DNA of 64,000 nt from an uncultured Eubacteriales bacterium (GCA_964406505.1 CAYORX010000007.1:10841-74840), one strand, 5' to 3'. Positions 1 through 63,977 are shown, counted from the stretch's first letter. The notes: generated from the letters alone by a model not told the origin. Program-made: numbers and translations.

Positions 1-462
1 TGCAGCATTTGTAGCTTTGTTGGGTCTAAAAGTAAAAAAGAAATAAGCGAGTCCCAAGACAGTTCCAAAAACCATAACTATGTTATCTATGGAATTTAAA
101 GGAATAAGCGTACCCTGAATCTGCCTTACGAAATCACTTTCTATAGCTTTTATAGATAAGGCAGCACCGATACCAGTCAAGAACGCCATAGGCCACCTTG
201 CTAACCATTGAATTTGGGGAAAAAGTTTCGTAAACAGCACAATACCCAAAGCAGTTGGAATTAATGCCAAGAAACTACCTCTTTGGGTAACTGGTACTAC
301 AACCTGTCTTTCCACAACGCTCCAGGCCATAACCAATGCATACCCCGCCGCCACACCAACATAGAGGTTCTGGAAAACCCTAAAGACTTTGTTTTCTTTC
401 CACAAAAAGCTATAAATGCCAATGGTACAAATGGCACCTGCCCATACTATTGCTGTATCCAC
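1..462 (-). CDS. polytopic membrane protein, paralog of 51983..52576 (cassette gene D, copy 1); 5' end present, 3' end runs off the window start
   Basis: Minus-strand frame read by eye from GTG at 460-462 (SD GGAGG at 470-474) gives MDTAIVWAGAICTIGIYSFLWKENKVFRVFQNLYVGVAAGYALVMAW..., which aligns with ORF 51983..52576 (..VWKENPFYRSAEHLYVGISAGHAVVMAY..). It is absent from the ORF track because no stop codon lies inside the window. Confidence 0.5.
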   Translation of the reverse strand, partial: MDTAIVWAGAICTIGIYSFLWKENKVFRVFQNLYVGVAAGYALVMAWSVVERQVVVPVTQRGSFLALIPTALGIVLFTKLFPQIQWLARWPMAFLTGIGAALSIKAIESDFVRQIQGTLIPLNSIDNIVMVFGTVLGLAYFFFTFRPNKATNAA

Positions 463-473
463 ATTGCCACCTC

Positions 474-1313
474 CTAATTAAATTCACGATTATTCTTCTG
501 CGACTTTTCTATGAAAAATGCAATGTTCCCAAGGATTACAATAAGAACAATAACCATATGCCCAAGTGATTGAGCATCCATAGCTGCAGTTGCAGCACCA
601 GCTTGATCAATAGCTATTTCATATTCGGCAGCGGATTTTAAGCCGCCTCCAAGCAATCCCACTAACTGTCCTGATTGCAAATATGCCTCGTTTTGGGGAC
701 CCATAACCGCCACTACCCCGCAAGCCACGAGCACGTCAAACCTCGTCTGAACTTGCCTAACCCACTCGGCAGGGCCTGGAATACCGGTAGAAAATTCAGC
801 TATTAAGTCAAAATCAGCCGCAGTACTAACTCCTTGCATTATTGGATAAGAATCCAGGCTCTTTCCTCGTGAATCTGTCGGAAACACTTCTTTAATGTTT
901 TGACCGAAAGCAGATATAGCGGTATCCGAACCTGCGGCAAAACCAAGATGTATTATATCTTCGCCATAAACTTTACCTTGTTCTTCCCAATACCCGACAG
1001 CTTTCGTTCCAAATTGAAATCCTGCTTCAATAAACGCAACACAGATAACTTTCACATCTTTACTCATAGCATGAGTAAGAACGGCCTGTGCTTGGGGATC
1101 CACGTCCGGGCCACCACCAATAGAATAATCAAAAACTAAAAGCATTTTGTCGCCCGCTTGTAAGTTTTCGACCGCATCCACAAAAGATTGTGTTGGTCTT
1201 GTCACCTCTATCGGAATTCCTAACGGTCTCACAAGGGGCACTACAACTACTAGGAAAATCACAATATACAGTATCCTACTATCCATATGGGTGAATTTAT
1301 TTAGTAAGTTCAT
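474..1313 (-). CDS. uncharacterised bitopic membrane protein (N- and C-terminal TM helices around a ~230-aa soluble domain); cassette gene C, copy 1
   Basis: 293-aa ORF. The likely true start is the internal ATG (MNLLNKF..) at 1313, preceded by AAGGAGGG, which removes the 28-nt overlap with the upstream gene. Paralog of 52577..53425 (shared ..AMDAQSLGH..IVLIVIL.. C-terminal TM and many other blocks). Confidence 0.6.
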   Translation of the reverse strand: MNLLNKFTHMDSRILYIVIFLVVVVPLVRPLGIPIEVTRPTQSFVDAVENLQAGDKMLLVFDYSIGGGPDVDPQAQAVLTHAMSKDVKVICVAFIEAGFQFGTKAVGYWEEQGKVYGEDIIHLGFAAGSDTAISAFGQNIKEVFPTDSRGKSLDSYPIMQGVSTAADFDLIAEFSTGIPGPAEWVRQVQTRFDVLVACGVVAVMGPQNEAYLQSGQLVGLLGGGLKSAAEYEIAIDQAGAATAAMDAQSLGHMVIVLIVILGNIAFFIEKSQKNNREFN

Positions 1314-1326
1314 TCGTGTCCCTCCT

Positions 1327-1947
1327 TCATTCACCGCCGAAATAAGCCCTATCAATACCTACCAACACCCTAAATCCTGTAACTACCATACCAAGAGCAG
1401 CACCTATCATAATCGCTCTATTACCGGCGACGTTTGGAATTTTCATCAACCATTCAGAGGATTTTCCGAAAAATGGGGAAATTAGATTGCCAATTGGTGC
1501 ATTACCGATCATGACCAGAATCCCAGCAATAAGAAGGAATGCAGCATCTATGTTCCTAGCCCTGAAAGCCCGTCTTGCGGCAGATGCTATAAAAAAAATC
1601 ATCATTGAAAACATTGCAGTCCCTAAAGGCTGAAACAATCCATCATATAAAAAAGTGTAGAAGTTCGCTAAATTTTTCGATAACCCCGCTATAGCCATTA
1701 ATATCATACCGGCAAATACAAAAAGTGACATCCACCAATCTTCTTGCTTTGTTTTAATTCGTTTGCCATGCACGACCGACAAATTTGCCGCGGCTAGCGC
1801 CATAGCTAATGCAGAAACGATCGTTCCCCAGTTTTGAACTGTTTCAGCAATGGGAACGACTGCAGGCAAGAATCCTTTTAAAAAATACTCTAAGAGAATT
1901 ATTATTCCGACGGTAAAGCCTATAGCTATTGGTACTTCTTTTCGCAA
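1327..1947 (-). CDS. uncharacterised polytopic membrane protein (~5-6 TM); cassette gene B, copy 1
   Basis: 206-aa hydrophobic ORF with a TTG start preceded by GGAGGT. Paralog of 53429..54061 (..NVAGNRAIMIGAALGMVVTGFRVLVGIDRAYFG vs ..NTAGMRAIMMGAALGVVSTAMKMFLGIDKSYLG). Confidence 0.6.
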   Translation of the reverse strand: MRKEVPIAIGFTVGIIILLEYFLKGFLPAVVPIAETVQNWGTIVSALAMALAAANLSVVHGKRIKTKQEDWWMSLFVFAGMILMAIAGLSKNLANFYTFLYDGLFQPLGTAMFSMMIFFIASAARRAFRARNIDAAFLLIAGILVMIGNAPIGNLISPFFGKSSEWLMKIPNVAGNRAIMIGAALGMVVTGFRVLVGIDRAYFGGE

Positions 1948-1960
1948 TTACGGCACCTCC

Positions 1961-2734
1961 TTACCATTTAAGCAATTCGACTAACTGCATATTTCCCATA
2001 GTTGCCAGCAAGGCCCCAAGAACAATAAAAATAAATGCAAATACTTTTCCATAATCTTGTGCGGCAAGATTTGCTACCTTTTCCGGGTCTTTGCTCAGGT
2101 AAGCGCCGCCTGCAAATATTTCTTCTCCTATAAGCGTATAGTCACAAGATGCCGCAAAAAACGGAACTTGCATAGCTCTAGCTGTGCCAGCAATTGTTAC
2201 AGCACCGACCATTGCCGCAGCCTCAGACAGCATCATCGACTCAGCCTGAAACTCACCAACCATAATGACACTCGCCGTTTTGTCTTGATTCATTATGGTA
2301 AGACAACCCGCTACAAAAGCAAACTGTTGAGATGACACAAATTGAACTGTTTCCGATTTGACAACTTCTGGTCTGCCCTCTTCAAGGTAAGATTGCCTAA
2401 CTACAGCATCAGCTACTGGATATACGTTCGCAGCGGCTATGGCAACTTTCAGTTCTGTATCGTATTTCGCTGTGAGCCTTGCCACGTGGCCAAGTATTTC
2501 GAGCCCTGCTAAATTCTGCGCAGCGCCTGCCGTGGTAATTTCCGTTCTTCCAGGAACATATAATACGGGGCGCCCAAGTTCTGTGGCCCTGCCCACAGCT
2601 TCTTCAATAGCATCTAAACCCGGAATTCTGCGAATATAATAAACCTTTCCTCCCGCAGCACGCTTCATAAAATAAACAACTATACTTAAAAAAACTATGA
2701 AGATGAAAAAAACTGTTTGCTTTCCCTCAACCAA
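1961..2734 (-). CDS. uncharacterised bitopic membrane protein (N- and C-terminal TM helices around a soluble domain); cassette gene A, copy 1
   Basis: The ORF track gives 1961..2752 (TTG). A TTG at 2734 sits 8-9 nt after GGAGGT and aligns better with the ATG start of the paralog 54092..54868 (MIVAGKQ vs ILVEGKQ). Conserved blocks include IRR.P.LDA.EEAVGRATE.GRPV and DY.LIGEEI.A..AYLS. Confidence 0.55.
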   Translation of the reverse strand: MVEGKQTVFFIFIVFLSIVVYFMKRAAGGKVYYIRRIPGLDAIEEAVGRATELGRPVLYVPGRTEITTAGAAQNLAGLEILGHVARLTAKYDTELKVAIAAANVYPVADAVVRQSYLEEGRPEVVKSETVQFVSSQQFAFVAGCLTIMNQDKTASVIMVGEFQAESMMLSEAAAMVGAVTIAGTARAMQVPFFAASCDYTLIGEEIFAGGAYLSKDPEKVANLAAQDYGKVFAFIFIVLGALLATMGNMQLVELLKW

Positions 2735-2890
2735 AATTGATGCACCTCCCAATAGTTAATTGTAAAAGCCTTCAAGATCCACCTCCAATTATTAGATTTC
2801 CTATGATTTCAGATATTCGCGGCTTTATTGTGGTTTTCCTTTAAAAATTTCATTAAATCCCAATATTCTGTATATTTTAGATATTTTTAA

Positions 2891-2948: not shown

Positions 2949-4415
2949 TTATGGTATGCTTAAAGGCATCTTCCGATATTGGGTAATATTTTCGAACGAA
3001 TAAGCGATCTTAATTAGCGTACCTTCGCTCCACGGGCGGCCGAGAATTTCTAAACCTATGGGGACTCCGATAGGAGCATCGTCGGTGGGCGAAGAAAACC
3101 CTGCAGGTACCACAACCGATGGAAAGCCCGTGACCGAGCCCAATGCCCCATTTCTTTCAATTTGACTTCCGCCCACAAGACACGCCAACCGTTTTTGATG
3201 GGGAAATATGAGAGCTTCAATATTTTCTTTAGCCATTATCTCCATTACTTTGTCCTGAAGTTTAGCTTTTTTTAGAAGTCTGTCTTTGTAATCTACACTA
3301 TCAGTGCTTAAAGTTTGTGCGTGCTTAAGGTTCTCTTCAATATTTTTATGATACTTACCTGAGGCCAAAACATCGGCCATTGAATGTACTGATGCTCTAT
3401 CGCCAAGATTAACGAGATAGCTATCAAGATCACGTTCCAAATCATGCAAATGTACGCTAATTTCAGATACAATCTGATCTACATCTAGAATCTCTTCTAT
3501 ATCTATTAACGTAGCGCCGTTTTCAGCCATTACTTCGATACATCGTCTGATTGCGCTGTTTACATCCTCGTGTTCCGGGCTTAGCCCAAAAAAGCTTTTT
3601 AGTACACCGAGCCTTACACCTTCAAGGCCACTATGTTCAAGATATTTCGTATAGGATTCGGGAATGTTTTTCACTGCCCATGCCGTGGATGGATCACCTG
3701 GATCGTATCCTGAAATCACATCCAAAACTTTCACAGAATCTTCCACCGTTCTTGTGATTGGACCAGCGGCATCTTGGGTAAGAGAATATGGGATAATCCC
3801 ATTACGGCTTACCAATCCGATCGTCGGCCTAATTCCAACTAAACTACAAGCTGATGCCGGTGACCTTATAGAGTTTATCGTATCAGTACCAATACCTATC
3901 ACACCAAAGTTTGCAGCGATACCCGCCCCAGTTCCTCCGCTAGATCCGCCTGGTGTCCTTGTAAGGTCATAAGGATTAAGTGTCTGGCCCAGAATTGAAC
4001 TCACAGTTTCTCCCCAAACAGCAAACTCGTGGAGGTTAACTTTCGCCAATATTATGGCACCAGCATCCAAAAGTTTTTTAGTAATAAACGCATCTTCTTT
4101 AGGAACATAATCTTGCAGACTTAATGAACCGCCTGTGGTAGGCATATCTTTTGTATCTACATTGTCCTTAAGCAAAACCGGTATGCCGTGGAGTAGCTTT
4201 AATGAACCGTTTTGCTTAAACTCCTTATCTTTTTCGTCAGCTATATCCAAAGCCTTGGGATTCAAATATATAATGGAGTTTAGTGACGGTCCTTTTTGAT
4301 CATAGGCCTCTATCCTTTTCAAATAACCTTCTATCAACTGCCGAAAACTTAGTTCGCCACGCCTCACTGCCTCGTGAATACCGGCAATAGTCAATTCATT
4401 AAAACTTATTGCCAT
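2949..4415 (-). CDS. amidase (amidase-signature family)
   Basis: GGSSGG motif plus the Ser-cisSer-Lys context (..TPGGSSGGTGAGIAA.., ..GTDTINSIRSPAS..). About 490 aa. Start probably ATG at 4415 (MAISFNELT..); the ORF track extends to 4427. Confidence 0.85.
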   Translation of the reverse strand: MAISFNELTIAGIHEAVRRGELSFRQLIEGYLKRIEAYDQKGPSLNSIIYLNPKALDIADEKDKEFKQNGSLKLLHGIPVLLKDNVDTKDMPTTGGSLSLQDYVPKEDAFITKKLLDAGAIILAKVNLHEFAVWGETVSSILGQTLNPYDLTRTPGGSSGGTGAGIAANFGVIGIGTDTINSIRSPASACSLVGIRPTIGLVSRNGIIPYSLTQDAAGPITRTVEDSVKVLDVISGYDPGDPSTAWAVKNIPESYTKYLEHSGLEGVRLGVLKSFFGLSPEHEDVNSAIRRCIEVMAENGATLIDIEEILDVDQIVSEISVHLHDLERDLDSYLVNLGDRASVHSMADVLASGKYHKNIEENLKHAQTLSTDSVDYKDRLLKKAKLQDKVMEIMAKENIEALIFPHQKRLACLVGGSQIERNGALGSVTGFPSVVVPAGFSSPTDDAPIGVPIGLEILGRPWSEGTLIKIAYSFENITQYRKMPLSIP

Positions 4416-4503
4416 TAATATCACCAACCCTTTAAATTCTTATCCAACAATTCGCGTAGCACACAAAACTATCCAAAATTCACATTCAGAATTTGTGGTT
4501 GTT

Positions 4504-9429: not shown

Positions 9430-10266
9430 ATGATACGGAATAAGTCAAACACAGAATCTGTAACCCGCAATTCGCCAATTGGTATTTTTGATTCGGGAGC
9501 AGGTGGCTTAACAGTTGTAAAGCAAGTTCAAAGATTGCTTCCGAACGAAAATATTTTGTATTTCGGAGATACAGGCCGGGTCCCTTATGGACCCAGGCCT
9601 TTATCGCAAGTACGCAAGTTTTCACTGGAAATTTCGACTTTTTTGCACAGGCAAGGAGCCAAAGCTCTCGTTATAGCATGCAACACTGCCACCGCAGCCG
9701 CACTAACAGCAATCAAAAACTCTCTTTCCATCCCAGTAATAGGCGTGGTTGAACCAGGAGCTAAAGCAGCATTCGACGTTGCTGGTTCTAAAGGAAAAGT
9801 GGGCCTAATAGCTACCCAAGGTACCGTGGACAGCAATGTTTACGAGATAGAACTGACAAAACTCGGCTTACAATCAGCAGTTTTAAATCAAGCTTGCCCT
9901 GAATTCGTTATATTAGTAGAACAAGGAATGACTGACAAAACTGCCGTGGAAAATGCTACCCGAAAATGTACCAGAGTTTTCCGCGACCAACCCGTGGATG
10001 TTTTGATATTAGGATGTACTCACTTTCCATTGCTTTCAGCGTATATCCAAAAACAAATACCCAAAGTAAAACTTATCGATCCGGCTATACACACTGTAAA
10101 ATCTTTGCGATCACAGTTGGAAGAAAATGATCTTTCCCATGACCCCTCAACAAATTCAGAGTACAAGTTTTTTTGCACTGGAGACCCTTTAGAGTTTAAG
10201 AAAAATATTGACTCTATTCTTGGCTCCAATGCTCATAAAGTAGAACATGTAAACTTAAATTCATAA
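9430..10266 (+). CDS. murI: glutamate racemase
   Basis: IGIFDSGAGGLTV, YFGDTGRVPYG, ACNTATA and GCTHFP motifs. Confidence 0.9.
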   Translation: MIRNKSNTESVTRNSPIGIFDSGAGGLTVVKQVQRLLPNENILYFGDTGRVPYGPRPLSQVRKFSLEISTFLHRQGAKALVIACNTATAAALTAIKNSLSIPVIGVVEPGAKAAFDVAGSKGKVGLIATQGTVDSNVYEIELTKLGLQSAVLNQACPEFVILVEQGMTDKTAVENATRKCTRVFRDQPVDVLILGCTHFPLLSAYIQKQIPKVKLIDPAIHTVKSLRSQLEENDLSHDPSTNSEYKFFCTGDPLEFKKNIDSILGSNAHKVEHVNLNS

Positions 10267-10404
10267 CGATAGCAAACTCAATATCGCCGGGATGACAAAC
10301 AATACGAGGCTGCAATGGTTACCGCAGCCTTAATTTGTTCAAACACGATAAAACCTGACAGGCTCAATATTTGTGTCACTAAGTTTAAAAGGAGGTAATT
10401 ATGC

Positions 10405-11649
10405 ATGCCCCAAAACATCCTGGACCCAGTTTTTAAAGCCCGTCAAAAAAAATCACGGCTCATCATAGGCCTTATGTCTGGAACTTCTGCAGATGGAATC
10501 GATGCTTGTTTATGCAAAATACAAGGGGTTGGAGAAACAACTCGAGCGGAGATTTTGCATTTAACATCTGTTCAATATCCATCGTCCGTCGAAACCTTGC
10601 TCACTAGTGAAATATCTAACTTAAATATTGAGCAAATAGCTAGACTGAATTTCTTTATCGGCAAGATTTTTGCAGAGGCTGCAGTTAAATGTATCCTGGC
10701 AGCAGGTTATAATGCTTCTCAAATAGACGCAATCGCGTCACATGGACAAACGCTTGTTCATTTACCTACCGCAGATGCAAGCGATCCTATACTCGTACCT
10801 GCCACTTTGCAAGTAGGAGATATTTCAGTCATTGCACAGCGTACTGGGATACTTACCATAGGTGATTTTCGTCCAGCGGATATGGCCCAAGGGGGTCAAG
10901 GAGCACCTCTCGTACCTTATGCAGATTTTCTTCTCTTCCGGGATCCTAAAATAGGGAGGATAATTCAAAACATTGGGGGAATTGCAAACTTAACTTATTT
11001 ACCGCCAAACTGTACACAAAAAGATGTAATCGCCTTTGATACCGGCCCGGGCAACATGGTGATCGACGCTGTGGTCAATATGCTTACACAGGGTAAATAT
11101 TCAATGGATACTGATGGAGGCTTCGCTACATCTGGAAATGTAAATCAAAAATTGCTGTCTCATCTTCTAAATGATCCGTATTTCGCCATAAAACCACCCA
11201 AAACTACCGGTCGGGAAATGTTCGGCGTTAAATACGCCCGCCAAATCTTGAACATTTATGAAGACTATACAGATGCATTGTTGATTCCAAAAGACCGCCG
11301 CAAACACATATGTAGCTTAGTAGCAACCGTTTCTGAATTGACAGTTCGAACGATTATAGAATCTTATAAATCATGGATTCTTCCAAAGGGCCCCATTCAC
11401 GAGGTTATCTTAGGTGGAGGTGGCGCGCAGAATCCTTATTTATGCGAAAGATTGAACAGCGGTTTGCAAAAAATAGATCCAAACATACGCGTGCTCACTC
11501 ATGAAAATTTCGGCATTCCAAACAAAGCTAAGGAATGCCTAGCTTTTGCAGTGTTGGGAAACAACTTTTTGGGACATGTACCTAACAATATGCCTAGTGC
11601 AACAGGGGCTGAAAAGGCCGTGGTCATGGGCAAATTGGCGCTGCCATAA
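10405..11649 (+). CDS. anmK: anhydro-N-acetylmuramic acid kinase
   Basis: GLMSGTSADGIDA N-terminal signature of AnmK. 414 aa. SD AAAGGAGG. Confidence 0.85.
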   Translation: MPQNILDPVFKARQKKSRLIIGLMSGTSADGIDACLCKIQGVGETTRAEILHLTSVQYPSSVETLLTSEISNLNIEQIARLNFFIGKIFAEAAVKCILAAGYNASQIDAIASHGQTLVHLPTADASDPILVPATLQVGDISVIAQRTGILTIGDFRPADMAQGGQGAPLVPYADFLLFRDPKIGRIIQNIGGIANLTYLPPNCTQKDVIAFDTGPGNMVIDAVVNMLTQGKYSMDTDGGFATSGNVNQKLLSHLLNDPYFAIKPPKTTGREMFGVKYARQILNIYEDYTDALLIPKDRRKHICSLVATVSELTVRTIIESYKSWILPKGPIHEVILGGGGAQNPYLCERLNSGLQKIDPNIRVLTHENFGIPNKAKECLAFAVLGNNFLGHVPNNMPSATGAEKAVVMGKLALP

Positions 11650-30811: not shown

Positions 30812-31918
30812 TTAACTTTCGAAGCAGCAAAGTTCTTGATACAAAGCGCGATGATATCGAACTTCTGTTATAAGTCCTATGTTCTTTCTATAAGATAAAT
30901 GCTCTATCAATGAAACGGCATAATAAGCTTGGCGCAAAGATGTTCGATAATCTATCCCAACATTTTTGAAATACTGTTGTAAAGCATGATCATAAATACC
31001 AGACGCATAATTTAATAATGGTTTGGGATTACCGCCCATCTTTTCTGATGAAAACAAACGAAATAAATCGTAGAAGAACACATATTCTCCATTATGTTCC
31101 CAATCTAAGACATGCCATGTTCTCCCATCATACAATATATTTTCCGAATGCAAATCTCCGTGACCAGGCATGAGTGGAATAGGTAATTCGACGATAGGCT
31201 CGAGCTTCCAACACAAATATTTGAAAAAATGATCTGGTATGTATTCACGCAGTGAGTCATCTTTTAAGTAATCTTTGACAATTTTATACGAATATATCGT
31301 CACTTGCTCCAAAAACAACTTATATTGCTCAAACAGTTCATATATTACTTTTCCCACTTCATCGGATTCCCAAACAGCCAACACCTTACCACATAAAAGG
31401 GGTTCAATACAAATATGCTCTGCATTGAATTTGATTCTAGTTTGTCGAGGAGCACTCAACAAATTGCGCAATGTTTTATCGCCTGAAATACTACGCAAAT
31501 ATCCATCTTCATTTTTATATCTAGTCATCACCAAATTTTCTCGTAAATCAAATATCCTTATATTATCTGCACTGCTCAAAAACAAAACAGTTCCTTTACC
31601 AAACTGCGTAATTGATTTTGGAGTACCGTCAGATTCTAGCAAGATTTTACTTCGTAAAACGTTCTTAACGATAAACCTAAGTTTCCCTAAAACCCCGCCA
31701 GTAGCATCTTTTGTGTTTCCAAAATTACTTTGGATGTATCGTTTTGTTTGTAGATCGGATTTATACGCTAGATTACCTAATATGATATATGTTCCTGGCT
31801 CTAAATATTGCGACATTTCTTTGACCAGGCGTTTAACTTTATTACGTCTGGACAGATAATTTATTAAAGTTTTAAGTGCCCTAAATAGGAAATCCACATA
31901 TTCTACCCCGCTTCCCAC
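30812..31918 (-). CDS. phosphotransferase of the APH/choline-kinase (protein-kinase-like) family
   Basis: HGDLHSENILYDG...HVLDWEH matches the catalytic-loop/Mg-binding motif HGDLHxxNxL...DWE of APH-family kinases. 368 aa. Confidence 0.6.
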   Translation of the reverse strand: MGSGVEYVDFLFRALKTLINYLSRRNKVKRLVKEMSQYLEPGTYIILGNLAYKSDLQTKRYIQSNFGNTKDATGGVLGKLRFIVKNVLRSKILLESDGTPKSITQFGKGTVLFLSSADNIRIFDLRENLVMTRYKNEDGYLRSISGDKTLRNLLSAPRQTRIKFNAEHICIEPLLCGKVLAVWESDEVGKVIYELFEQYKLFLEQVTIYSYKIVKDYLKDDSLREYIPDHFFKYLCWKLEPIVELPIPLMPGHGDLHSENILYDGRTWHVLDWEHNGEYVFFYDLFRLFSSEKMGGNPKPLLNYASGIYDHALQQYFKNVGIDYRTSLRQAYYAVSLIEHLSYRKNIGLITEVRYHRALYQELCCFES

Positions 31919-46060: not shown

Positions 46061-46125
46061 CAAATAAAAAGAAGCGGTTAACATCTTGCTAAGAAATGTT
46101 GAATCCGCTTCTTTAATTCTTTTAG
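46061..46125. terminator. bidirectional terminator between convergent dehydrogenase (+) and acyl-CoA synthetase (-) genes
   Basis: AAATAAAAA-GAAGCGG-27 nt loop-CCGCTTC-TTTAATTCTTTT. Confidence 0.5.
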
Positions 46126-48242
46126 TTAGTATCAGACACTTTAAGTCTAGCATCTAGCACGCCAATCCCAGTTGGATAAACGCGTACAGGGTTAAGTTCA
46201 ATATCTGTAACTTCTGGATTTAACGCTATGATCTCCGACATCTTTACGATACATTCCGCCAATGCGTCGATATCAAGGGGCTCAGAACCCCTGTATCCTT
46301 GAAAAATCTTAGATGCTTTTATAGATTTGATCATGTTTATAGCTGTTTCCTTTGAAATAGGCGCCATTTTAAATACCATGTCAGAAAAAACCTCTACAAA
46401 TACACCACCCATGCCAAACATGACCATAGGGCCCATTTGTACATCTTTTACGGCCCCCACTATAACCTCAGGCCCTGATTTAGCATGCGGCGCTAGCAAA
46501 TACCCATCAATAGTCGCCTCAGGCGCTTTTTGATTTACTGACTTTCGTATTTTATTAATAGCTTGCGCTAGTTCAAAATCATCTGCGATATTTAACACCA
46601 CACCGCCCACATCTGTTTTATGCACTATTTGCGGCGATACGATTTTTGCAACCAAAGGATACCCCAAATTTCTTGCTGCCTCTTTAGCTTCGTCTAGAGT
46701 TTGCACCAATGCATAAGGTCCAACGTCTAGCCTATAAAATCCAAGTAATTGCCGTGCTGTTACTTCAGTAGCACCTCGCTTTACAGCACGCCGCAAAATA
46801 TCTGACACAGTGTCACTGTCGACTGTTCTAGCAAGCCTTTTTTGGGAGTCATCGCCAAGTGATTTTAGTAGCCTAAATCTTTTTACCATGTTGCTCATGG
46901 CTCTAGATGCTCTGTCGGGCATATCGAACGTGGGATAGTTACGTGCCTCAAGAAAACGTCGCGCTTCCTTGACCCAATCGCCGGCCATAATACATGAAAG
47001 CACCGGTTTGTTTATTCCGCTCGCCGCTTTATGGATTTCCTGAGCAAGTTTAACGGGAGACAGAAAAGTTGGGGGAACACTTAAAAGCACAACCCCGTCG
47101 ACATTAGGATCCATCAACACGGTTTCCAAAGCTAATCCATGTTGCTCTTCGTCACCAGCCGCAGTCATGTCAATGTAGCCTTTAGGCTGATTGATGGTAG
47201 CCATAGGAGGCAGAATTTCCTTGAGTCGTTTCACAGTACCTAGCGACAAATCAGATAGCTCACATTCATTCATCTCGAGTAATGCATCCATAGCAGTAAT
47301 CCCCATGCCGCCCGCCTCAGTCAAAATACAAATACGATTGCCTTTGGGCAACGACTGCATACCTAAGGCTCTTGCTGTATCGAGCAGTTCTTCTATCGTG
47401 TCAACTCTTACTATACCGCTTTGTTCAAAAGCACCGTCGTATACGTCGTCGCTGCCTGCTAACGACCCGGTATGCGAAAAAGCTGCACTGGCTCCAAGAT
47501 TTGTTTTACCCACCTTGAGCACTACGACAGGTTTATCCTCCGCTATCGTCTTAGCTGTTTCCATAAATTCGCGGGCGTTAGCGAATCCTTCCATGTATAC
47601 ACCTATTACTTTAGTACTCGAATCTGTTCGATAATATTTTAAAATCTCGAGCATGTCCACGTCGCACATATTACCGACATGGGCAAACTTGCTAAACCCC
47701 AACGGCACAGGTTGATCACCGTCAAACATCAAAATAGATGCACCCAAAGACCCACTTTGAGTCATAATGCTCATTCCACCCGGCGTTTGCTTTACGCCTG
47801 GTGCAAAACTAGTATCCAAATTCATTCCTGTATTCATTATGCCAACACAATTCGGACCTAATATCCTAATACCGGCCTCATCCGAAATCCACTTTATACG
47901 GTTTTCAAGCTCAATCCGGTCGGGATCACCTGTCTCAGAAAAACCGGCGGAAACGACTATAGACGCTCTCACGTCGCCGCGTTTTCTGGCCTGTTCAAAC
48001 ACAGAAGGCACTAAAGGGGCAGGTATTACCACTATCATAAGTTCAACTTCTTCCGGTATGTCTAAAAGATTTGGATAGCATTTTAAATCTAATATTTGAG
48101 TTTCTTTAGGATTTATGGGATATATTTCGCCCGTAAATCCCAATCTTTTAAGATTAAGCAAAATCTGATGCCCCGCCTTACCAGGATCAACAGACGCACC
48201 AACAATCGCTACACTTTTCGGAGTAAAAAATGATCGCATCAT
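46122..48242 (-). CDS. acyl-CoA synthetase (NDP-forming), fused alpha-beta type (acetyl-CoA synthetase ADP-forming-like)
   Basis: N-terminal CoA-binding (..PKSVAIVGAS..), succinyl-CoA-synthetase-like flavodoxin domain and C-terminal ATP-grasp. ~705 aa from the ATG at 48242, which removes the overlap with the upstream gene. Confidence 0.75.
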   Translation of the reverse strand: MMRSFFTPKSVAIVGASVDPGKAGHQILLNLKRLGFTGEIYPINPKETQILDLKCYPNLLDIPEEVELMIVVIPAPLVPSVFEQARKRGDVRASIVVSAGFSETGDPDRIELENRIKWISDEAGIRILGPNCVGIMNTGMNLDTSFAPGVKQTPGGMSIMTQSGSLGASILMFDGDQPVPLGFSKFAHVGNMCDVDMLEILKYYRTDSSTKVIGVYMEGFANAREFMETAKTIAEDKPVVVLKVGKTNLGASAAFSHTGSLAGSDDVYDGAFEQSGIVRVDTIEELLDTARALGMQSLPKGNRICILTEAGGMGITAMDALLEMNECELSDLSLGTVKRLKEILPPMATINQPKGYIDMTAAGDEEQHGLALETVLMDPNVDGVVLLSVPPTFLSPVKLAQEIHKAASGINKPVLSCIMAGDWVKEARRFLEARNYPTFDMPDRASRAMSNMVKRFRLLKSLGDDSQKRLARTVDSDTVSDILRRAVKRGATEVTARQLLGFYRLDVGPYALVQTLDEAKEAARNLGYPLVAKIVSPQIVHKTDVGGVVLNIADDFELAQAINKIRKSVNQKAPEATIDGYLLAPHAKSGPEVIVGAVKDVQMGPMVMFGMGGVFVEVFSDMVFKMAPISKETAINMIKSIKASKIFQGYRGSEPLDIDALAECIVKMSEIIALNPEVTDIELNPVRVYPTGIGVLDARLKVSDTN

Positions 48243-48246
48243 ATGT

Positions 48247-49206
48247 TTACCTCTTCTCGAATTGATTTCCATTAGATGATCTTGTACGATACATATCCCA
48301 TGCATTTATGAAATCTATCTTCGCTTTAGTAATCACATCCCAAGGATTTTCCTCCGACCGCGGCTTTACCTCAAGTGACATGCTAGGGCGCCTATTGCCA
48401 TCCCAAAGCGTATGATTTAATGCGGTTTGAATAAATCGACTAAGATCCAGTACGCTTACTCTGCTGCCAGGAATTCCAAAAGGCGGATGCTGATCACCAT
48501 AAAGCGGATGCGTAGAATCATCAACCACTGCATTTGCCAAATGAATGTGACATACAAACCCGGCGCATTGCGTAAAAACACTTTCCGGCTGTTCGTTAAG
48601 CTGCTGAATATGAGATTGGTCGACGACTAAGCCAAAATTATCGTAATCGCGGCGAACTTCTTTTGCGAATACTGAAGTTTCAGAAAAAGGTCCCAATAGT
48701 TGTTTGTGCTGTACGGCTCTATCTGCCGGCTCAAGTGCAACAACTAATTCTTTGTGAGTAGATTTGGTCCGTGCATACGAACATAAACTTTTCATGGAAC
48801 TATATAAAGCTGAATACGCCTGCTCACGTTTCTGGGGGTCGGGATCAGGACCGCTAATAAAGAACACTGTTTCAGCCCCCAAAGAAAGAGCCTCGTCAAT
48901 TAGTTCCTTACCGCGACTTACTGCGCTCTTTCGCAAATCCGAATCTAATGTTGAAAGGTTATACTCATTAAAAACCATAGGGGGAATTGCTGAAAATATT
49001 ACCCGTATACCAAAATGACGCAAGATTTCGGCAACACGTTTGCGAGCGTTAAAATCTTCAATATGAGTAATATCAATAACCGTAAAATCACTATCGTTTA
49101 GGCATTGCTCGAGATTATCTACTATGGGTCCTTTCCCTTCAATAGTATCCAAATAACTCATATAGTGGACTACACCCAAATCGAGCGTATTTTTCCAACC
49201 GGCCAT
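48247..49206 (-). CDS. sugar-phosphate isomerase/epimerase (xylose-isomerase-like TIM barrel) family protein
   Basis: ~320 aa. Start ATG at 49206 (MAGWKN..) behind AAGGAGGAA. Family assignment by overall pattern only. Confidence 0.45.
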   Translation of the reverse strand: MAGWKNTLDLGVVHYMSYLDTIEGKGPIVDNLEQCLNDSDFTVIDITHIEDFNARKRVAEILRHFGIRVIFSAIPPMVFNEYNLSTLDSDLRKSAVSRGKELIDEALSLGAETVFFISGPDPDPQKREQAYSALYSSMKSLCSYARTKSTHKELVVALEPADRAVQHKQLLGPFSETSVFAKEVRRDYDNFGLVVDQSHIQQLNEQPESVFTQCAGFVCHIHLANAVVDDSTHPLYGDQHPPFGIPGSRVSVLDLSRFIQTALNHTLWDGNRRPSMSLEVKPRSEENPWDVITKAKIDFINAWDMYRTRSSNGNQFEKR

Positions 49207-49239
49207 TAGTGCTTCCTCCTTAAACATTTTCGTTACATA

Positions 49240-51709: not shown

Positions 51710-51900
51710 AGTATCATCCCCTTTTGGATTTGATTAAAGAAAAACGGCAGGAATTCGATTAGGTGTTGAGCCGTGCTTTGAAAATTCCAAATCATCGCAT
51801 ATTAAGCGGCGTTTACCCGTATCCAAATTATATAAAATTTTGGGTTTTTTCGCAATGTGAGTAACTTTCAAACTTAGATAAATTCAAATAAACACAAATA

Positions 51901-51944
51901 TTGAGGGTGCTTAAAGAAATTTTTAAACTTATCTGCACCCTCAA
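51901..51944 (-). terminator. rho-independent terminator after cassette copy 2
   Basis: TTGAGGGTGC-24 nt-GCACCCTCAA with a 10-bp perfect stem. On the minus strand it is followed by TATTTGTGTTTATTTG. Confidence 0.55.
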
Positions 51945-51982
51945 CCGAGTTTTGTTAATATGATTTTATTGGAATCGCGGTA

Positions 51983-52576
51983 CTATTTTATAATTCCCAA
52001 CCAATCGCCAAGAATAAACTGTATTCTACCGATCATAAGCGCCATTCGACCCATAACGGTAGTGCCAAAAGCGGCTCCGAATGCCACCATCAATACCATT
52101 CGACCTGAGCGAGGCAAGATACTTATAGGCCCTTTTAGCTCCTTAGAGAAAAAGAAATAACTTAGCGATGCGATTACAAACAACAAGAGCAACACTTCGT
52201 CAACGCTGCCAACTCTAATGGTAGCCCCCATTTGCTGGGTAAAATCACCATGGATTGCTCCGCGCACCGCTACACCTGTTCCAATTCCTACCATAACCGC
52301 AACAGGATATCTAGCAAGCCAGGCTTCTTTGGTATACCTAGCATATAGAAGTACGCCAAGTAGCATGGGAAGAACCCATACCATTTCTCCGGCTGCTATG
52401 GGCTGAAACGCTGAATCCCTAACATTGGTGTAAGCCATTACAACCGCATGACCTGCACTAATGCCAACGTATAAGTGTTCCGCCGAGCGATAGAAGGGGT
52501 TTTCTTTCCACACCAGGCTTAGTATCGCAATAGTAATTAAACTTGCTATCCAAGTACCAATATTTAAACTCATCAA
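51983..52576 (-). CDS. uncharacterised polytopic membrane protein; cassette gene D, copy 2
   Basis: 197 aa, ~5-6 TM. Paralog of the partial gene at 1..462. The C-terminal G.R..M...A.G...GT.VMGRMALMIG block resembles the C-terminus of cassette gene B. Confidence 0.6.
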   Translation of the reverse strand: MMSLNIGTWIASLITIAILSLVWKENPFYRSAEHLYVGISAGHAVVMAYTNVRDSAFQPIAAGEMVWVLPMLLGVLLYARYTKEAWLARYPVAVMVGIGTGVAVRGAIHGDFTQQMGATIRVGSVDEVLLLLFVIASLSYFFFSKELKGPISILPRSGRMVLMVAFGAAFGTTVMGRMALMIGRIQFILGDWLGIIK

Positions 52577-53425
52577 CTACACACCCCTTCCTGTGTGGCC
52601 GTCAGCTGATTTTTGCTGCAAAGCGTCACCGATGTTCCGAAGTATAATCAGCACTATAATCAACAAGTGAGCTAAAGACTGCGCATCCATTGCAGCTACT
52701 GCACTGCCCGGATCATCTAACAATAGCTCATACTCCGCAGCACCGGGAAGACCACCAAGCGTACCTAACACTTGTTTAGCATGTACATATGGCGCCACCT
52801 GAGTAATGGCAACGGCTGGTACACCGCAGACTAAAGGTGTTTTATAAGCACCATAAACTTGGCGCACGTAATCTTCGGGTCCCGGAGATCCCGGTGCAAT
52901 AGTGACAATCATGTCTAGATCTCCAGCGTCCTTAATGCCTTGCATAATTGGAAAAGATGAACTGGCAGCCCCAGAATAATCGGTGCTAAACGTTCCCACA
53001 ACATCTGACGCAAAAGCAGCGATTGCACCTTGCCCTCCGGCCCTGAAACCAAGATTGACATAATCTACTCCGTATTCTTTTTGCTCTGTCCATCCAGTAA
53101 GTTCAAAAGCTTTTTCAGCCATTAAAGGCCCATATTGAAAGAATGAAAGTCCAATTACCTTCACGTCCTTTTCAAGCAAATGCTTTAAAACAGCAAAAGC
53201 TTGAGGTTCCATTTCCGCCGCGCTGCCTGGTGAATAATCGAATCCAAAAACCACAGAAGAACCGGGTTCAAGGGCATCTATTACATTATATGAGTTCTGA
53301 GTATCACGACTAATCTTTATCGGTATGCCAATAGGCTTAATTAAAGGCCCGGCCAGCACGACTAACAAAATCACATACATCCACGTTTTAGGGATTGACT
53401 GTAGGCGTTCTATCATTGTATGCAC
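52577..53425 (-). CDS. uncharacterised bitopic membrane protein; cassette gene C, copy 2
   Basis: 282 aa. N-TM, soluble domain, C-TM (..AMDAQSLAHLLIIVLIIL). SD TAGGAGGTG before the ATG. Confidence 0.6.
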   Translation of the reverse strand: MHTMIERLQSIPKTWMYVILLVVLAGPLIKPIGIPIKISRDTQNSYNVIDALEPGSSVVFGFDYSPGSAAEMEPQAFAVLKHLLEKDVKVIGLSFFQYGPLMAEKAFELTGWTEQKEYGVDYVNLGFRAGGQGAIAAFASDVVGTFSTDYSGAASSSFPIMQGIKDAGDLDMIVTIAPGSPGPEDYVRQVYGAYKTPLVCGVPAVAITQVAPYVHAKQVLGTLGGLPGAAEYELLLDDPGSAVAAMDAQSLAHLLIIVLIILRNIGDALQQKSADGHTGRGV

Positions 53426-53428
53426 CTC

Positions 53429-54061
53429 CTAATCCCGTTGTCCAAGATAACTTTTGTCTATGCCTAAAAACATCTTCATAGCTGTTGATACTACTCCGAG
53501 AGCAGCTCCCATCATGATAGCCCTCATACCAGCAGTGTTTGGAACTTCTTGTATCCAATCACTGGCTACAGGAAAAAAATCTGAAATAATGCTACCGATA
53601 GGTGCCTTACCCAACATAACGATTATGGCAGTTGTTAAAAGTAGCCACCCTTCAACCCCTTTAGCTGAAAACGATCTATAAGCAGCAGTGACGATATAGA
53701 AGGCAATGGTAGAATACATGGTGGCTGAAGCGGGCGACATAATATTAGAGTATAAAAAGTCGTAGGCATCGCTTGAAGGTCCAAACGCAATACCAAAAAT
53801 TATCATAATTATCATCGAGCCAACCAAAAGTATGCTATAAAATGAGTCTTTATCTCGCTTTACAATCGTACCAGAGTGCCTACGTATAAGGTTTACCGCC
53901 CCAAGCCCCATAGCAAACGCAGAGATGATAATACCCCAAGATCTCATCACTATAGCTACCTGGCTTATCCAGGCAACTGCCGGAACGCTTGCTACAAAAA
54001 AGTCTAATATCATAATCAACGCAATTACTGTCATTATTATGACTGGCAAAGTAGTTTTCAA
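53429..54061 (-). CDS. uncharacterised polytopic membrane protein; cassette gene B, copy 2
   Basis: 210 aa, hydrophobic. Paralog of 1327..1947. Confidence 0.6.
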   Translation of the reverse strand: MKTTLPVIIMTVIALIMILDFFVASVPAVAWISQVAIVMRSWGIIISAFAMGLGAVNLIRRHSGTIVKRDKDSFYSILLVGSMIIMIIFGIAFGPSSDAYDFLYSNIMSPASATMYSTIAFYIVTAAYRSFSAKGVEGWLLLTTAIIVMLGKAPIGSIISDFFPVASDWIQEVPNTAGMRAIMMGAALGVVSTAMKMFLGIDKSYLGQRD

Positions 54062-54091
54062 ATCAACCTCACCTCCGTGCTTCTCTAAAAT

Positions 54092-54868
54092 TTACATATT
54101 CATCAAGTTGACAATTGCCTCGCTACCGAAAACTAAAAACACGGCTCCCAAAGCCATTATTCCAATTACAAGCACTTTAGCGAGATCTTGGCCCATCACA
54201 ACGGCCAACTCAACCGGATTGCCGGATAGATAAGCGCTAGCAGCATATATTTCTTCACCTATCAAACAATAGTCTGAAGCTACAACCAAAAATGGAAGCT
54301 GAGCTACTGTGGCTGAACCAGTTACCTGTATACCACCAGACTGAGCCCCGGCTTCTGTCAAAAGCAATGCCTCAGCCAGCCAAGAACCGATCATGATGTT
54401 CGCCGCTACCTTTTCGCGGTACATAATCCCCACCGCGGCAGCGGCATAAGCAAACTGTTCAGCACCGATAAATTGAACCATATCGGGTTGGTAATGGTCT
54501 GCTTTTCCTTCGGCAAGAAAACTTTGTTTCACAACATCTTCTGCTACAACATACACATCAGGCAACATTATGGTAGTGATAAGACCAGTATCGTACCTAG
54601 CGCACAACTTAGCCACATACGACAAAACCGATAGCCCTGCCAGAGTCTGCGGTGATCTTTCATGGGTAAGAGCCACAATGCCGGGGCTGAAATGGACAGG
54701 GCGACCCATTTCAGTTGCTCTCCCGACTGCTTCTTCAACAGCGTCCAGAGCAGGCAATCTTCGAATTTGGAATGATTTTCCCTTCCTAGCTGCGTTTATG
54801 CAATAACCAAATATTGAAAATAAAAGTACGAGGGAAATGAATGAGAATTGTTTACCAGCAACTATCAT
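54092..54868 (-). CDS. uncharacterised bitopic membrane protein; cassette gene A, copy 2
   Basis: 258 aa. ATG behind TTTTAGGAGGTG. Paralog of 1961..2752. Confidence 0.6.
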   Translation of the reverse strand: MIVAGKQFSFISLVLLFSIFGYCINAARKGKSFQIRRLPALDAVEEAVGRATEMGRPVHFSPGIVALTHERSPQTLAGLSVLSYVAKLCARYDTGLITTIMLPDVYVVAEDVVKQSFLAEGKADHYQPDMVQFIGAEQFAYAAAAVGIMYREKVAANIMIGSWLAEALLLTEAGAQSGGIQVTGSATVAQLPFLVVASDYCLIGEEIYAASAYLSGNPVELAVVMGQDLAKVLVIGIMALGAVFLVFGSEAIVNLMNM

Positions 54869-55118
54869 AAATACACCTCCTAAAATTTCTGTGGAACCGG
54901 TGTCTTTTTCCCCCCTTTTTTATCAAAATGACCATACACAACTCATGGTAGTACACCCTTGACATAGTCCCCACGAATAAATTCCTGGGATTCTACCATC
55001 ATTGAAGAATGCCTGCTAAACAGGTCTTATAACTTCTCTTGTAAAGGACGATGCCCAAACCCTATAAATTTTAAATCATAACCCTTCACAATACTTAATT
55101 ATTAAAACTACAAGCTGT

Positions 55119-56342
55119 TTATTCAGGTTTAGACTGTAAACGCGCATTTTCAAGATGTTTATTTGCTTTTTGCAACAAATCCGGTTCAAACATTAGATCA
55201 ACAGCGCTCAAGGCCAACACTTTAGCCGCAAGCAAAGTTGCGTCAATACCTTCCACGGTTATCGTATCATCTGCCATCTCCCTTGAATGTCCCCGAGCTT
55301 TCGTCATACCAAATCCGATTTGTATGCAAGGAATTTCCCAAGTTACAGCACCTACATCGGTTACGCCCCCACCTGACTTTCGTTTGTCAGGTATGATTTC
55401 GTGACCGAGAAATTTGAAATATTTCCGGGCTAGCTCTTTTAGGACAGGGTGCTCTAAAGTTTCTTTGAAAAGCGGTTCATAATGTTTGAATTTTACGCTC
55501 GCACCTACGGATGATGCCGCACCTTCTGCACATTGCTTAACTTTGGGCAGGACAGTCTCCTCAAGATAATGTGAGTTCCGAGATCTCACAGTGAATCTAA
55601 CAACTGCTTTATCAGGCACTACATTTGGCGCGTCACCACCATGAGTTATAATACCTGCAAGACGTACATCATCGCGCAAATGATTTCTCATCGTTCTTAT
55701 TTGAGTATATGCGGAAACGCAAGCATCTAATGCATTAATACCTGATCCGGGATTAGCTCCTGCGTGAGCTGATCTACCCAAAAAAGTGATTTGTAAGGGA
55801 TGGGATGCCCAAGAAGAACCACCTAGATGATTAGTTTGGCCTGGATGCGCAATAAAAGCCGCATCCATGTCAGAAAACACTCCCGCCTCGGCCATTACAA
55901 CTTTACCGCCGATAGTCTCCTCGGCGGGTGTTCCCAAAACTATCCACGATCCTTGTATTTCTTCGGGCGGAAATACTTTGTTTACGGCTATACCGGCTGC
56001 AACCGCACAAGAAGCGATAAGATTGTGCCCACAACCATGACCAATTACGGGCAAAGCATCGTATTCAGCAAGAAAAGCGATGCTCGGTCTTTGTGTTCCG
56101 CTTTGGGCTTTAAACGCAGTAGGCATGCCAGCTATCTCCCGCTCTACGTCAAATCCTTTTGACTCAAGAATTTCGGAAAGTTTCGAAGATGCATATACCT
56201 CCTCAAGCCCAAGTTCAGGTTTATTGTACAAAGATTCAGCGATATCCTGTACAAGGGACCTCAAAGAATCGATCTCCTCGATGATTTTCATACGTTTATG
56301 TTCTAGATCTAATTTTTTCTTCTTCGTAGAGTTATCACTCAA
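55119..56342 (-). CDS. M20D-family amidohydrolase (AbgB/hippurate-hydrolase/aminoacylase-like)
   Basis: ..HGCGHNL.., ..GTPAEE.., ..HAG..P..G.NA.. blocks. 407 aa. Confidence 0.75.
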   Translation of the reverse strand: MSDNSTKKKKLDLEHKRMKIIEEIDSLRSLVQDIAESLYNKPELGLEEVYASSKLSEILESKGFDVEREIAGMPTAFKAQSGTQRPSIAFLAEYDALPVIGHGCGHNLIASCAVAAGIAVNKVFPPEEIQGSWIVLGTPAEETIGGKVVMAEAGVFSDMDAAFIAHPGQTNHLGGSSWASHPLQITFLGRSAHAGANPGSGINALDACVSAYTQIRTMRNHLRDDVRLAGIITHGGDAPNVVPDKAVVRFTVRSRNSHYLEETVLPKVKQCAEGAASSVGASVKFKHYEPLFKETLEHPVLKELARKYFKFLGHEIIPDKRKSGGGVTDVGAVTWEIPCIQIGFGMTKARGHSREMADDTITVEGIDATLLAAKVLALSAVDLMFEPDLLQKANKHLENARLQSKPE

Positions 56343-63119: not shown

Positions 63120-63977
63120 TCAATCCGCAGTTTTTTTATACTTTCCCCTACGCATATCGCGTGCTTTTCCCCTACGGTGGTAGGCTATATATTGCAAGCA
63201 TAACTCTTCTAGACCGCCTGCATACATACCATCCATATCAATGAGTTTGATCGGAACAGATTTGGGGATTTTTTTGAACATGTTTTTCAACGTAAGATCT
63301 TCTGATGTTATGGTAATGAGCATAACGTTGTGTTTGCGGCTTAGTTGCTCTTTAAGGCTGTCCCTAGCCTTGGTATTCGCCAACTTTTTTGGGTCTGGAA
63401 AATCCGAAGTAGTTTCGAAATGTTGCCTGCCTTGGAATTCGCCGGCAATCTTTGCATGAAAACAATATCGATCATACTCGAGAAACTCGCCACTCATGGA
63501 AGATTGGAGAAACCAGGGGCGGACATTGTCTATCCACGGCGATACGTCTATGATTTGCTCAAACCTTAGTTTCATTTTAAACTCGCCGACCCTTGGACTC
63601 ATTCTTATACATTCTCTAATATAGTCAAGTTTAGTTTTTTGGATTCGCTTTGGAAGTGTTGGAATCATTAACTGACTGTTGTCTAGGTGTTTGATGATAA
63701 TCCATTCCTTTTCAACCAAAGAGGCAACCAACCTACTTACTACCGTACGGTGCACACCGATACGACTGGCAAATTCACGAATGGAGCGCGGTTTTAGCAT
63801 TTGTAGCTGCATATAAAGGGACTTAGCCCTTTCATCAATCGAAGGGTCGCAAGCAAGCCCCCTAGGCATAGGTATAACCTGCCTTTGGGATGGAAGAGAC
63901 AAAGCCCGTTCTAAAATTTCCCTCAGTTTGATACTAACACCCCTTGGTAAATAATGACATTCGCCATATATTACCAC
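63120..63977 (-). CDS. hypothetical protein with N-terminal winged-HTH-like segment; C-terminal domain unknown
   Basis: ..KPRSIREFASRIGVHRTVVSRLVASLVEKEWII.. looks like a MarR/wHTH recognition-helix region. No family is recognised for the C-terminal ~150 aa. Start uncertain. Confidence 0.4.
   Translation of the reverse strand: MVIYGECHYLPRGVSIKLREILERALSLPSQRQVIPMPRGLACDPSIDERAKSLYMQLQMLKPRSIREFASRIGVHRTVVSRLVASLVEKEWIIIKHLDNSQLMIPTLPKRIQKTKLDYIRECIRMSPRVGEFKMKLRFEQIIDVSPWIDNVRPWFLQSSMSGEFLEYDRYCFHAKIAGEFQGRQHFETTSDFPDPKKLANTKARDSLKEQLSRKHNVMLITITSEDLTLKNMFKKIPKSVPIKLIDMDGMYAGGLEELCLQYIAYHRRGKARDMRRGKYKKTAD

Follow-up and report, generated by a model that had tools for sequence, protein, structure and literature searches.

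A conserved four-gene membrane cassette with a DUF6754 protein in an uncultured Eubacteriales bacterium: a candidate uptake system

A 64,000-nucleotide (nt) stretch of DNA from an uncultured Eubacteriales bacterium (GCA_964406505.1 CAYORX010000007.1:10841-74840; hereafter the window, with positions counted from its first letter) carries a cassette of four packed genes for membrane proteins, A, B, C and D, and the question it raises is what these proteins form together and what they do. A sequence-only reading had described them as a hetero-oligomeric membrane complex that arose by duplication of an A-B pair, with A resembling C and B resembling D, and had speculated about a secondary transporter or a membrane-bound processing complex. 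In our analysis the complex gained strong evidence, the duplication found no support, and uptake of peptides or amino-acid derivatives is the function that we tentatively favor. The elements of the cassette are as follows.

51885 to 51944, minus strand: terminator-like hairpin and U-rich tract, with a GC-rich stem of 10–11 bp at 51901-51944 and a long loop
51983 to 52573, minus strand: gene D, 196 amino acids (aa) from the ATG at 52573, no family match
52577 to 53416, minus strand: gene C, 279 aa from the ATG at 53416, no family match
53429 to 54061, minus strand: gene B, 210 aa, TTG start, no family match
54092 to 54868, minus strand: gene A, 258 aa, ATG start, Pfam DUF6754
54869 to 55118, minus strand: upstream intergenic region of 250 nt with a promoter-like site inside

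Inheritance and expression signals of the cassette

The cassette was followed through a set of 81 non-redundant loci by iterated hidden Markov model (HMM) searches over all 4,455 open reading frames (ORFs). Complete A-B-C-D cassettes numbered 77 and occurred in 71 of the 81 loci, the remaining loci being mostly ended by a contig boundary. The gene order and the single strand were kept in all 77, across at least 12 bacterial phyla and Bathyarchaeia, with median distances from stop to next gene of 14, 1 and 0 nt, and the flanking genes varied, no family being found in more than 6 of the 129 immediate neighbors. Because order and tight spacing are fixed across phyla while the neighbors change, ABCD behaves as a self-contained unit whose genes are inherited together, and this argues strongly for a physical complex. 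The four proteins thus almost certainly form one hetero-oligomeric membrane unit, as had been suggested for the window. No true inter-subunit fusion was found; P0111 (467 aa) was considered as a C-D fusion and rejected, as it consists of a C domain, an extra transmembrane (TM) helix and an unrelated C-terminal domain.

All four subunits are well conserved, with mean pairwise identities of 45% for A, 42% for D, 41% for B and 39% for C, and A was above C in 89% of the cassette pairs. Conserved motifs were AYRAFRAR, MLGRVPIGE and VPNxAGxR in B and YKxNPxYxxxEH, YFFFS and FGAxFGxTVMxR in D, and YGxDxVNLG, AAEYE and MDAQSxxH were invariant in C. The A family comprises at least 5,995 clusters at 90% identity, and an exhaustive profile search gave 5,508 clusters at 50% identity for the C family. 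One genome per species was scanned with a C-family motif based on 9 sequences, and at least 589 species were confirmed as carriers. The carriers closest to the window, among the matches listed, were Fermentithermobacillaceae (Bacillota) with 72–77% identity, and others belong to Stahlbacteria, WOR-3, Zixibacteria, Eisenbacteria, Marinimicrobia, Latescibacteria, Cloacimonadota, Calditrichota, Ignavibacteria and Fidelibacterota, together with one Bathyarchaeia bin.

Two local features of individual lineages were also recorded. In 6–7 Stahlbacteria/WOR-3 loci (for example L022 6792-8947 and L037 9454-10311), three genes are conserved immediately 3' of D, one of them for a DUF4388 (PATAN-like) protein and the other two, of ~227 and ~192 aa, unassigned. 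A HEARO RNA (RF02033, 115 bits) lies ~2.4 kb downstream of a cassette of Ca. Fermentithermobacillus carboniphilus (L018 11857-12073) and marks a mobile IS200/605-type element near that locus.

In the window itself, the four minus-strand genes were found where they had been described, with a GGAGG-type Shine-Dalgarno site ahead of each and intergenic gaps of 30, 12 and 0–3 nt. The longest ORF of C covers 52577-53425 and opens with a GTG at 53425, three codons upstream of the ATG at 53416. The ATG is most likely the true start, since the NCBI-annotated product P0001 (279 aa) begins there and AGGAGGTG stands just 5' of it. For D, the longest ORF is 51983-52576 with an alternative TTG start at 52576, and the most likely start is the ATG at 52573, as in the annotated P0247 (196 aa). 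The hairpin at 51901-51944, claimed earlier as a terminator with a 10-bp stem, was borne out by folding: its perfect 10-bp inverted repeat forms a stem of 11 bp around a loop of ~22–24 nt, with a U-rich tail after it (dG of the region = -23.5 kcal/mol, z = -3.3), and none of 200 shuffled sequences folded equally well. A consensus terminator scan missed it because the loop exceeds the loop-length limit of the scan. A promoter-like TTAGCA-18 nt-TAGAAT with a TG extension lies at 55019-54990 in the spacer upstream of A, and an Rfam search revealed no riboswitch or other Rfam element there, and no riboswitch upstream of the cassette in 8 related loci.

Subunit architecture and the proposed internal duplication

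A matched the Pfam family DUF6754 (PF20539) with E = 1.3e-81 and 273.9 bits against a cut-off of 27 bits, covering model positions 12–254 of 257, and the same family was matched by 120 of 120 A homologs among the matches listed and by the A-type protein of a second cassette in the window (A', below). B, C and D had no match at E ≤ 0.05 in Pfam or NCBIfam. The earlier statement that none of the four could be placed in a named family therefore stands for B, C and D and fails for A, whose family is itself uncharacterized and without assigned function. Orthologs in public records are labelled "hypothetical protein" or "DUF6754 domain-containing protein".

AlphaFold2 (AF2) models of A and C, with mean predicted local distance difference test scores of 89.6 and 94.6, share one layout. 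In A, TM1 (~7–25) is followed by a Rossmann-like (beta-alpha)x6 domain and TM2 (~229–247), and C likewise consists of TM1, a Rossmann-like (beta-alpha)x6 domain and TM2. Hydropathy gave 6 TM helices for B and 6–7 for D. Models and hydropathy agree with the earlier description of A and C as a soluble domain, here of ~200 aa, between two TM helices, and of B and D as polytopic proteins of ~200 aa (210 and 196 aa). The invariant polar residues of A are E46, R50, T52, E53, H59, Q74, E166, E172, D199, Y200, E205, E206, D228 and K231. The A domain differs from the KTN/RCK domains of Trk, Ktr and Kef systems in being held between two TM helices, in having no Pfam TrkA_N match and in lacking a GxGxxG after beta1; a GxGxx[GA] pattern was found in only 2 of 40 sequences, in neither case after beta1, where the turn reads S-P-G-I.

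The sidedness of the subunits was deduced from the positive-inside rule, using family-averaged charge counts, and from variant architectures. A carries 5.1 lysine and arginine residues in the 15 residues after TM1 vs 0.8 before it, which predicts a domain in the cytoplasm and an N-terminus on the outer side. C has termini rich in lysine and arginine (3.0 at the N-terminus and 3.6 at the C-terminus, vs 1.2 and 1.0 on the domain side), and its domain is therefore predicted to be extracytoplasmic. The soluble domains of A and C would thus lie on opposite faces of the membrane. In B, the positive loops at 62–76 and 126–137 place both termini inside by prediction; those of D are at 79–89 and 144–156.

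Independent support for the predicted sidedness comes from variants of A and C. The A proteins of diderm phyla are extended ahead of TM1 by a signal-like segment and an FN3-like domain of ~100 aa, with a conserved AQWFHTGR motif between this domain and TM1; the Pfam fn3 match to the extension was below threshold and seen in 2 of 8 sequences. Extended A genes in diderm candidate phyla occur at L037 6083-7372 and L038 2611-3831 and in L048, L029, L076 and L077. One C variant has an N-terminal double zinc ribbon ahead of TM1, and another has a ~530-aa beta-rich repeat insertion inside the domain, for which a PDB search with the insertion of P0457 gave no relative.

Further forms of the C family were observed, including two tandem C domains in one protein and stand-alone Eisenbacteria forms that have an extra TM helix and a C-terminal domain and no A, B or D gene nearby. 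The variant C architectures are found in P0414, P0457, P0486 and P0391/P0111 (L004 6445-7848, L072).

The proposal that ABCD arose from an ancient AB pair by tandem duplication, leaving A homologous to C, B homologous to D and a pseudo-symmetric hetero-oligomer, was examined with BLASTP and hhalign. BLASTP gave E = 3.4 for A vs C, and E = 0.005 for B vs D over only a 16-residue, out-of-register hydrophobic stretch. With automated alignments (81–91 sequences), hhalign probabilities were 0.9% for A/C and 4.9% for B/D; curated alignments brought A/C to 1.9% (25 columns) and B/D to 6.1% (50 columns, out of register). Probabilities for the control pairs A/B, A/D, B/C and C/D were 0.2–1.0%, so that neither A/C nor B/D gave a signal above them, and the profiles of A, B, C and D never matched one another's families over the 4,455 ORFs. 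In favor of the proposal, the A and C models have an identical order of elements (TM, alpha0, (beta-alpha)x6, TM), an S-P-G turn after beta1 and a P-Q opening alpha1; each domain covers 129–137 of the 152 residues of 1kjn_B and ~120–125 residues of the same KTN domains. B and D are alike in size and both polytopic. Thus A and C share, at the level of the models, a fold class and the order of its secondary-structure elements. However, the Rossmann-like fold is the commonest alpha/beta fold, so homology of A and C is unproven, and homology of B and D has no support. Two further points stand against the duplication: the A and C domains are predicted on opposite sides of the membrane, so that as duplicates they would have to be an inverted pair, and the predicted topologies of B (6 TM, N-terminus inside) and D (6–7 TM, N-terminus probably outside) differ. 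We regard the duplication as quite improbable.

The motifs by which A had been likened to C and B to D lead elsewhere, to a second, paralogous cassette at the beginning of the window.

1 to 462, minus strand: D', with a GTG start at ~462 preceded by AGGAGGTG, cut by the window edge
474 to 1313, minus strand: C', 279 aa from a probable ATG at 1313, 43% identical to C
1327 to 1947, minus strand: B', 206 aa, 38% identical to B
1961 to 2752, minus strand: A', 263 aa, DUF6754-type, 43% identical to A

D' is 36% identical to D over 139 columns, the longest ORF of C' begins at 1355, A' was recovered by the A-family HMM at E = 8e-108, and the two cassettes show no similarity at the DNA level. Among the patterns quoted by the sequence-only reading, "G.PVLYV" is located in A', "FVDAVENLQAGDKMLLVFDYS" in C' and "G.R..M...A.G...TG.R...G" in B', all absent from the cassette for which they were cited; "I.R.P.LDA.EEAVG" is common to A and A'. 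The actual duplication within the window is that of the whole cassette, ABCD/A'B'C'D'. Whole cassettes also stand in tandem in L024, L035, L053, L064 (three copies), L076 and L077, many genomes have more than one copy, and single metagenome-assembled genomes (MAGs) carry 2–3 cassettes whose C proteins are 32–47% identical.

An accessory module with a GlmL-like ATPase

The sequence-only reading had stated that the cassette encodes no ATPase or other soluble partner. The cassette indeed has no ATPase, and the window contains none of the three genes described here; the statement needs qualifying in view of about a quarter of the related loci (~20 of 81), where three genes, S98, M608 and P371, adjoin the cassette on the same strand. 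Loci with the joined module belong to Bacillota, Marinimicrobia, Eisenbacteria, Latescibacteria, Fidelibacterota and other phyla. The same holds for the idea of a secondary transporter, as an ATPase module is fused to the cassette in those loci and separately encoded elsewhere.

S98 is a protein of ~100 aa with a conserved hydrophobic VPAIxFLExxKP segment. M608 (~610 aa) is an ASKHA-fold ATPase and matches the MutL/GlmL family PF13941 at E = 1e-127. It also matches the NCBIfam GlmL models, with scores below every cut-off (230 vs 475 and 166 vs 204 bits), and so failed the GlmL equivalog test (230 vs 475 bits). Unlike GlmL/MutL, it has ~125 extra C-terminal residues and is always paired with P371; its neighbors are P371, S98 and ABCD, not the subunits of a B12-dependent mutase. 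P371 (~372 aa) contains a KOW domain and, in 11 of 14 members, a barrel-sandwich hybrid domain of the RnfC_N/NqrA_N type (best E = 5e-8), and Biotin_lipoyl also matches 8 of the 14. Its mean column identity is 65% with ~90 invariant positions, and with at least 8,000 matches the family is as large as that of A.

The co-occurrence of module and cassette was judged from loci, at the following sites among others.

L001 8208-14474, L023 2805-9659, L026 2801-9562, L087 5581-9122 and L089 3825-11251: module sites
L087 9245-10231, L088 9267-10232 and L089 1897-2871: DUF483-like gene (~325 aa, CC...C..C motif)

In two Bacillota MAGs (L087 and L088) the module lies by itself, at a distance of over 8 kb from any cassette, and in both the DUF483-like gene lies 3' of it; the DUF483-like protein is a possible eighth component. 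In L077 a single module stands ahead of two tandem cassettes, and in the MAG with the locus-tag prefix GX500, P371 and a C homolog have distant locus tags. In Bathyarchaeota BA1 (L089) the module lies beside a divergent D-C-B-A cassette. The A gene of BA1 (10266-11251) is split into two ORFs (195 and 133 aa), one of which also matches DUF4258, and the ATPase gene is preceded by a D-like fragment of 87 aa (L089 3365-3628); decay, an assembly error or recent transfer could account for both.

Database searches placed no subunit in a characterized family. PDB profile searches with the families of A, B, C, D, P371 and M608 gave nothing meaningful and no relative of solved structure, no family model exists for B, C, D, P371 and S98, and the Pfam entry DUF6754 accounts for a single member of the co-inherited set of four (or seven) proteins. 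The alignments of A, B, C, D, P371 and S98 have no cysteine column in more than 55% of sequences and no cysteine clusters, and a motif check found no iron-sulfur (Fe-S), flavin or other cofactor motifs in the subunits. In the papers searched, no description came up for DUF6754, PF13941, a membrane-associated GlmL or DUF483, and the proteins of the cassette are not described in a 2015 survey of conserved archaeal membrane proteins. An anti-phage defense system was considered and rejected: PADLOC models gave no match for A, B, C, D, M608 or P371, and a weak ZorA match of S98 (E = 0.006) was judged to be noise.

Genomic context and possible functions

The surroundings of the cassette are rich in peptidases and transporters, as had been noted before. 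The enzymes directly upstream of each of the two cassettes in the window, both outside the complex, are:

2949 to 4427, minus strand: peptide-amidase-like amidase-signature enzyme upstream of the second cassette (E = 9e-76, full length)
55119 to 56342, minus strand: M20-family HmrA/Xaa-Arg-dipeptidase-like hydrolase upstream of the first cassette (E = 4e-65)

The region further codes for D-aminoacylase-like amidohydrolases, a Ddl-like ligase, gamma-glutamyl transpeptidase, M20, M24 and S9 peptidases and a TAXI-TRAP transporter. At Marinimicrobia-type loci (L023 460-12229, L039, L032, L070 and L075) all seven genes are embedded in an Opp operon, in the order OppB-OppC-[M608-P371-S98-A-B-C-D]-OppD-aldehyde dehydrogenase, with a single OppD/F-type ATPase gene after the seven; B has two insertions there (~85 and ~50 aa) and D has one (~40 aa), all in predicted external loops. 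Eisenbacteria-type loci are flanked by GcvP, lipoate ligase (LplA) and a TonB-dependent receptor, and other loci have M20, S58, C26, M42 or S8 peptidases nearby. The peptide/hydrolase theme thus recurs across distant lineages, and from the neighbor genes in the window and other loci, the earlier link to peptide or amino-acid-derivative metabolism is plausible. Elsewhere in the window, ORFs 30812-31918 and 63120-63977 have no Pfam match, and an ADP-forming acetyl-CoA-synthetase-like ORF (46122-48305) overlaps a xylose-isomerase-like TIM-barrel ORF (48247-49227) by 59 nt when the longest ORFs are taken; the true start of the latter is probably internal.

We tentatively favor, at somewhat under even chances, the reading that ABCD forms the membrane module of a new kind of uptake system with several subunits, whose substrates are peptides or amino-acid derivatives. 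C would be a membrane-tethered external ligand-binding subunit that, as the fastest-evolving of the four, may set specificity, and B and D, with 12–13 TM helices together, would form the translocation path. A, the most conserved subunit, would be a cytoplasmic docking or regulatory subunit that couples the membrane part to the ATPase module, and this module may serve several paralogous membrane modules. Substrates in this genome would probably be peptides or amino-acid amides or derivatives, which adjacent cytoplasmic hydrolases would then cleave. Such a system would resemble ABC and TRAP/TAXI importers in having a membrane-tethered external alpha/beta domain beside polytopic subunits, in occurring as several paralogous sets per genome, and in having genes next to those of catabolic hydrolases and, in the Marinimicrobia case, within an Opp operon. 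It differs from them in that ABCD shows no sequence or profile relationship to any component of ABC, TRAP or TTT transporters, and neither Pfam nor NCBIfam links B, C or D significantly to the ABC, MFS, TRAP, TTT, ECF or APC families; C has one lobe instead of the two-lobed Venus-flytrap of solute-binding proteins, and the associated ATPase, where present, is of the ASKHA and not the ABC type. Group II ECF transporters, with a shared energizing module and scattered S components, offer another parallel in modular logic: the soluble or peripheral module of S98, the GlmL-like ATPase and P371 stands either next to one or two membrane modules or by itself at another genomic site, and the membrane modules exist in several copies; judging from gene arrangement, the ATPase module may be shared between cassettes in an ECF-like way. 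Unlike ECF transporters, the cassette shows no homology to EcfA, EcfT or S components, and its membrane module has four subunits. A bolder form of the proposal, which we consider rather unlikely, is that ABCD, S98, the GlmL-like ATPase and P371 constitute an unrecognized class of primary transporter powered by an ASKHA ATPase. A single soluble energizing module would then stand in for an ABC or P-type ATPase and be shared by several paralogous membrane modules of four subunits each, with different substrate specificities.

Several observations weigh against an uptake system. No subunit is related by sequence or fold to a known transporter in the Pfam, NCBIfam, PDB and hhalign comparisons, the AF2 model of C is a single alpha/beta lobe and not a two-lobed binding protein, and to our knowledge no transporter is known to be driven by an ASKHA ATPase. 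The very high conservation of the A domain and of P371 would fit an enzyme as well, and the gap in evolutionary rate among the subunits is small (45% vs 39%). Neighbors are heterogeneous across loci (no family in more than 6 of 129), and carriers are mostly peptide fermenters, in which the background of peptidase neighbors is high. The embedding in Opp operons probably goes back to one event in a single lineage, and the absence of a riboswitch leaves no pointer to a ligand.

The strongest competitor, though unlikely, is a membrane-bound enzyme or a processing or biogenesis machine. Here the A domain or P371 would be catalytic, the GlmL-like ATPase would be an activase or chaperone, B and D would serve as anchors of the complex or as a channel for a substrate, and an external component would be sensed or acted on by C. 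The many invariant polar residues of A and the ~90 invariant positions of P371 fit such a role, an activase or chaperone function has been proposed for GlmL, EutA and DdrA, and GlmL relatives accompany enzymes, not transporters, as in the glutamate mutase operon. However, no subunit matches a catalytic family, conserved cysteines, cofactor motifs and GxGxxG are all absent, and transport modules with different substrates would better explain the several diverged copies per genome and the tandem arrays of whole cassettes; an envelope-specific role is hard to reconcile with carriers among monoderms, diderms and an archaeon. It is very improbable that the proteins form an ion-translocating energy-coupling complex like Rnf/Nqr, in which B and D would move ions and P371 would be a peripheral RnfC- or NqrA-like subunit. 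The likeness consists of two ~200-aa, six-TM subunits that match RnfA/E and NqrD/E in size and TM count, a partner with an RnfC_N/NqrA_N-type domain, and the anaerobic life of the carrier taxa. Against this, B and D aligned with E. coli RsxA and RsxE at hhalign probabilities of 0.07–0.6%, neither has a Pfam Rnf-Nqr match, equivalents of RnfB, RnfD and RnfG are lacking, and conserved cysteines and Fe-S and flavin motifs are missing from the subunits; given the Biotin_lipoyl matches, the barrel-sandwich domain is of a generic kind, P371 is absent from the window, and a respiratory complex would not usually be encoded in several copies per genome. A transmembrane sensor, in which C would bind an external signal and A would relay it to soluble partners, is likewise very improbable. 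It would make use of external and internal domains of ligand-binding type connected through the membrane, and GGDEF, DUF4388 and two-component genes are occasionally nearby, but these regulatory neighbors are rare (4–6 of 129), no subunit has an output domain (kinase, cyclase or DNA-binding), and two polytopic subunits with conserved intramembrane and interface motifs would be superfluous for signaling.

In summary, the four subunits and two of the three accessory proteins have no detectable relation to any characterized protein. The set is kept in order and sequence in at least 589 species of Bacillota, many FCB-group and candidate phyla and Bathyarchaeia, makes up thousands of protein clusters and often occurs several times in a genome. 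ABCD appears new in the sense that it has no traceable link to any known system, which does not imply new biochemistry. Two cultured carriers, Alkalicella caledoniensis, with all seven genes in one operon, and Anaerobranca, make it experimentally accessible. If ABCD is a transporter, it would represent a new architecture, possibly with a new type of energizing ATPase, and if the ASKHA proposal is true, that system would be widespread in uncultured peptide-fermenting bacteria and some archaea; if it is not a transporter, it is still a large conserved membrane machine. The carriers dominate anaerobic digesters, sediments and the subsurface and live on peptides and amino acids; an abundant membrane system that has gone unrecognized in them is a real gap in metabolic reconstructions.

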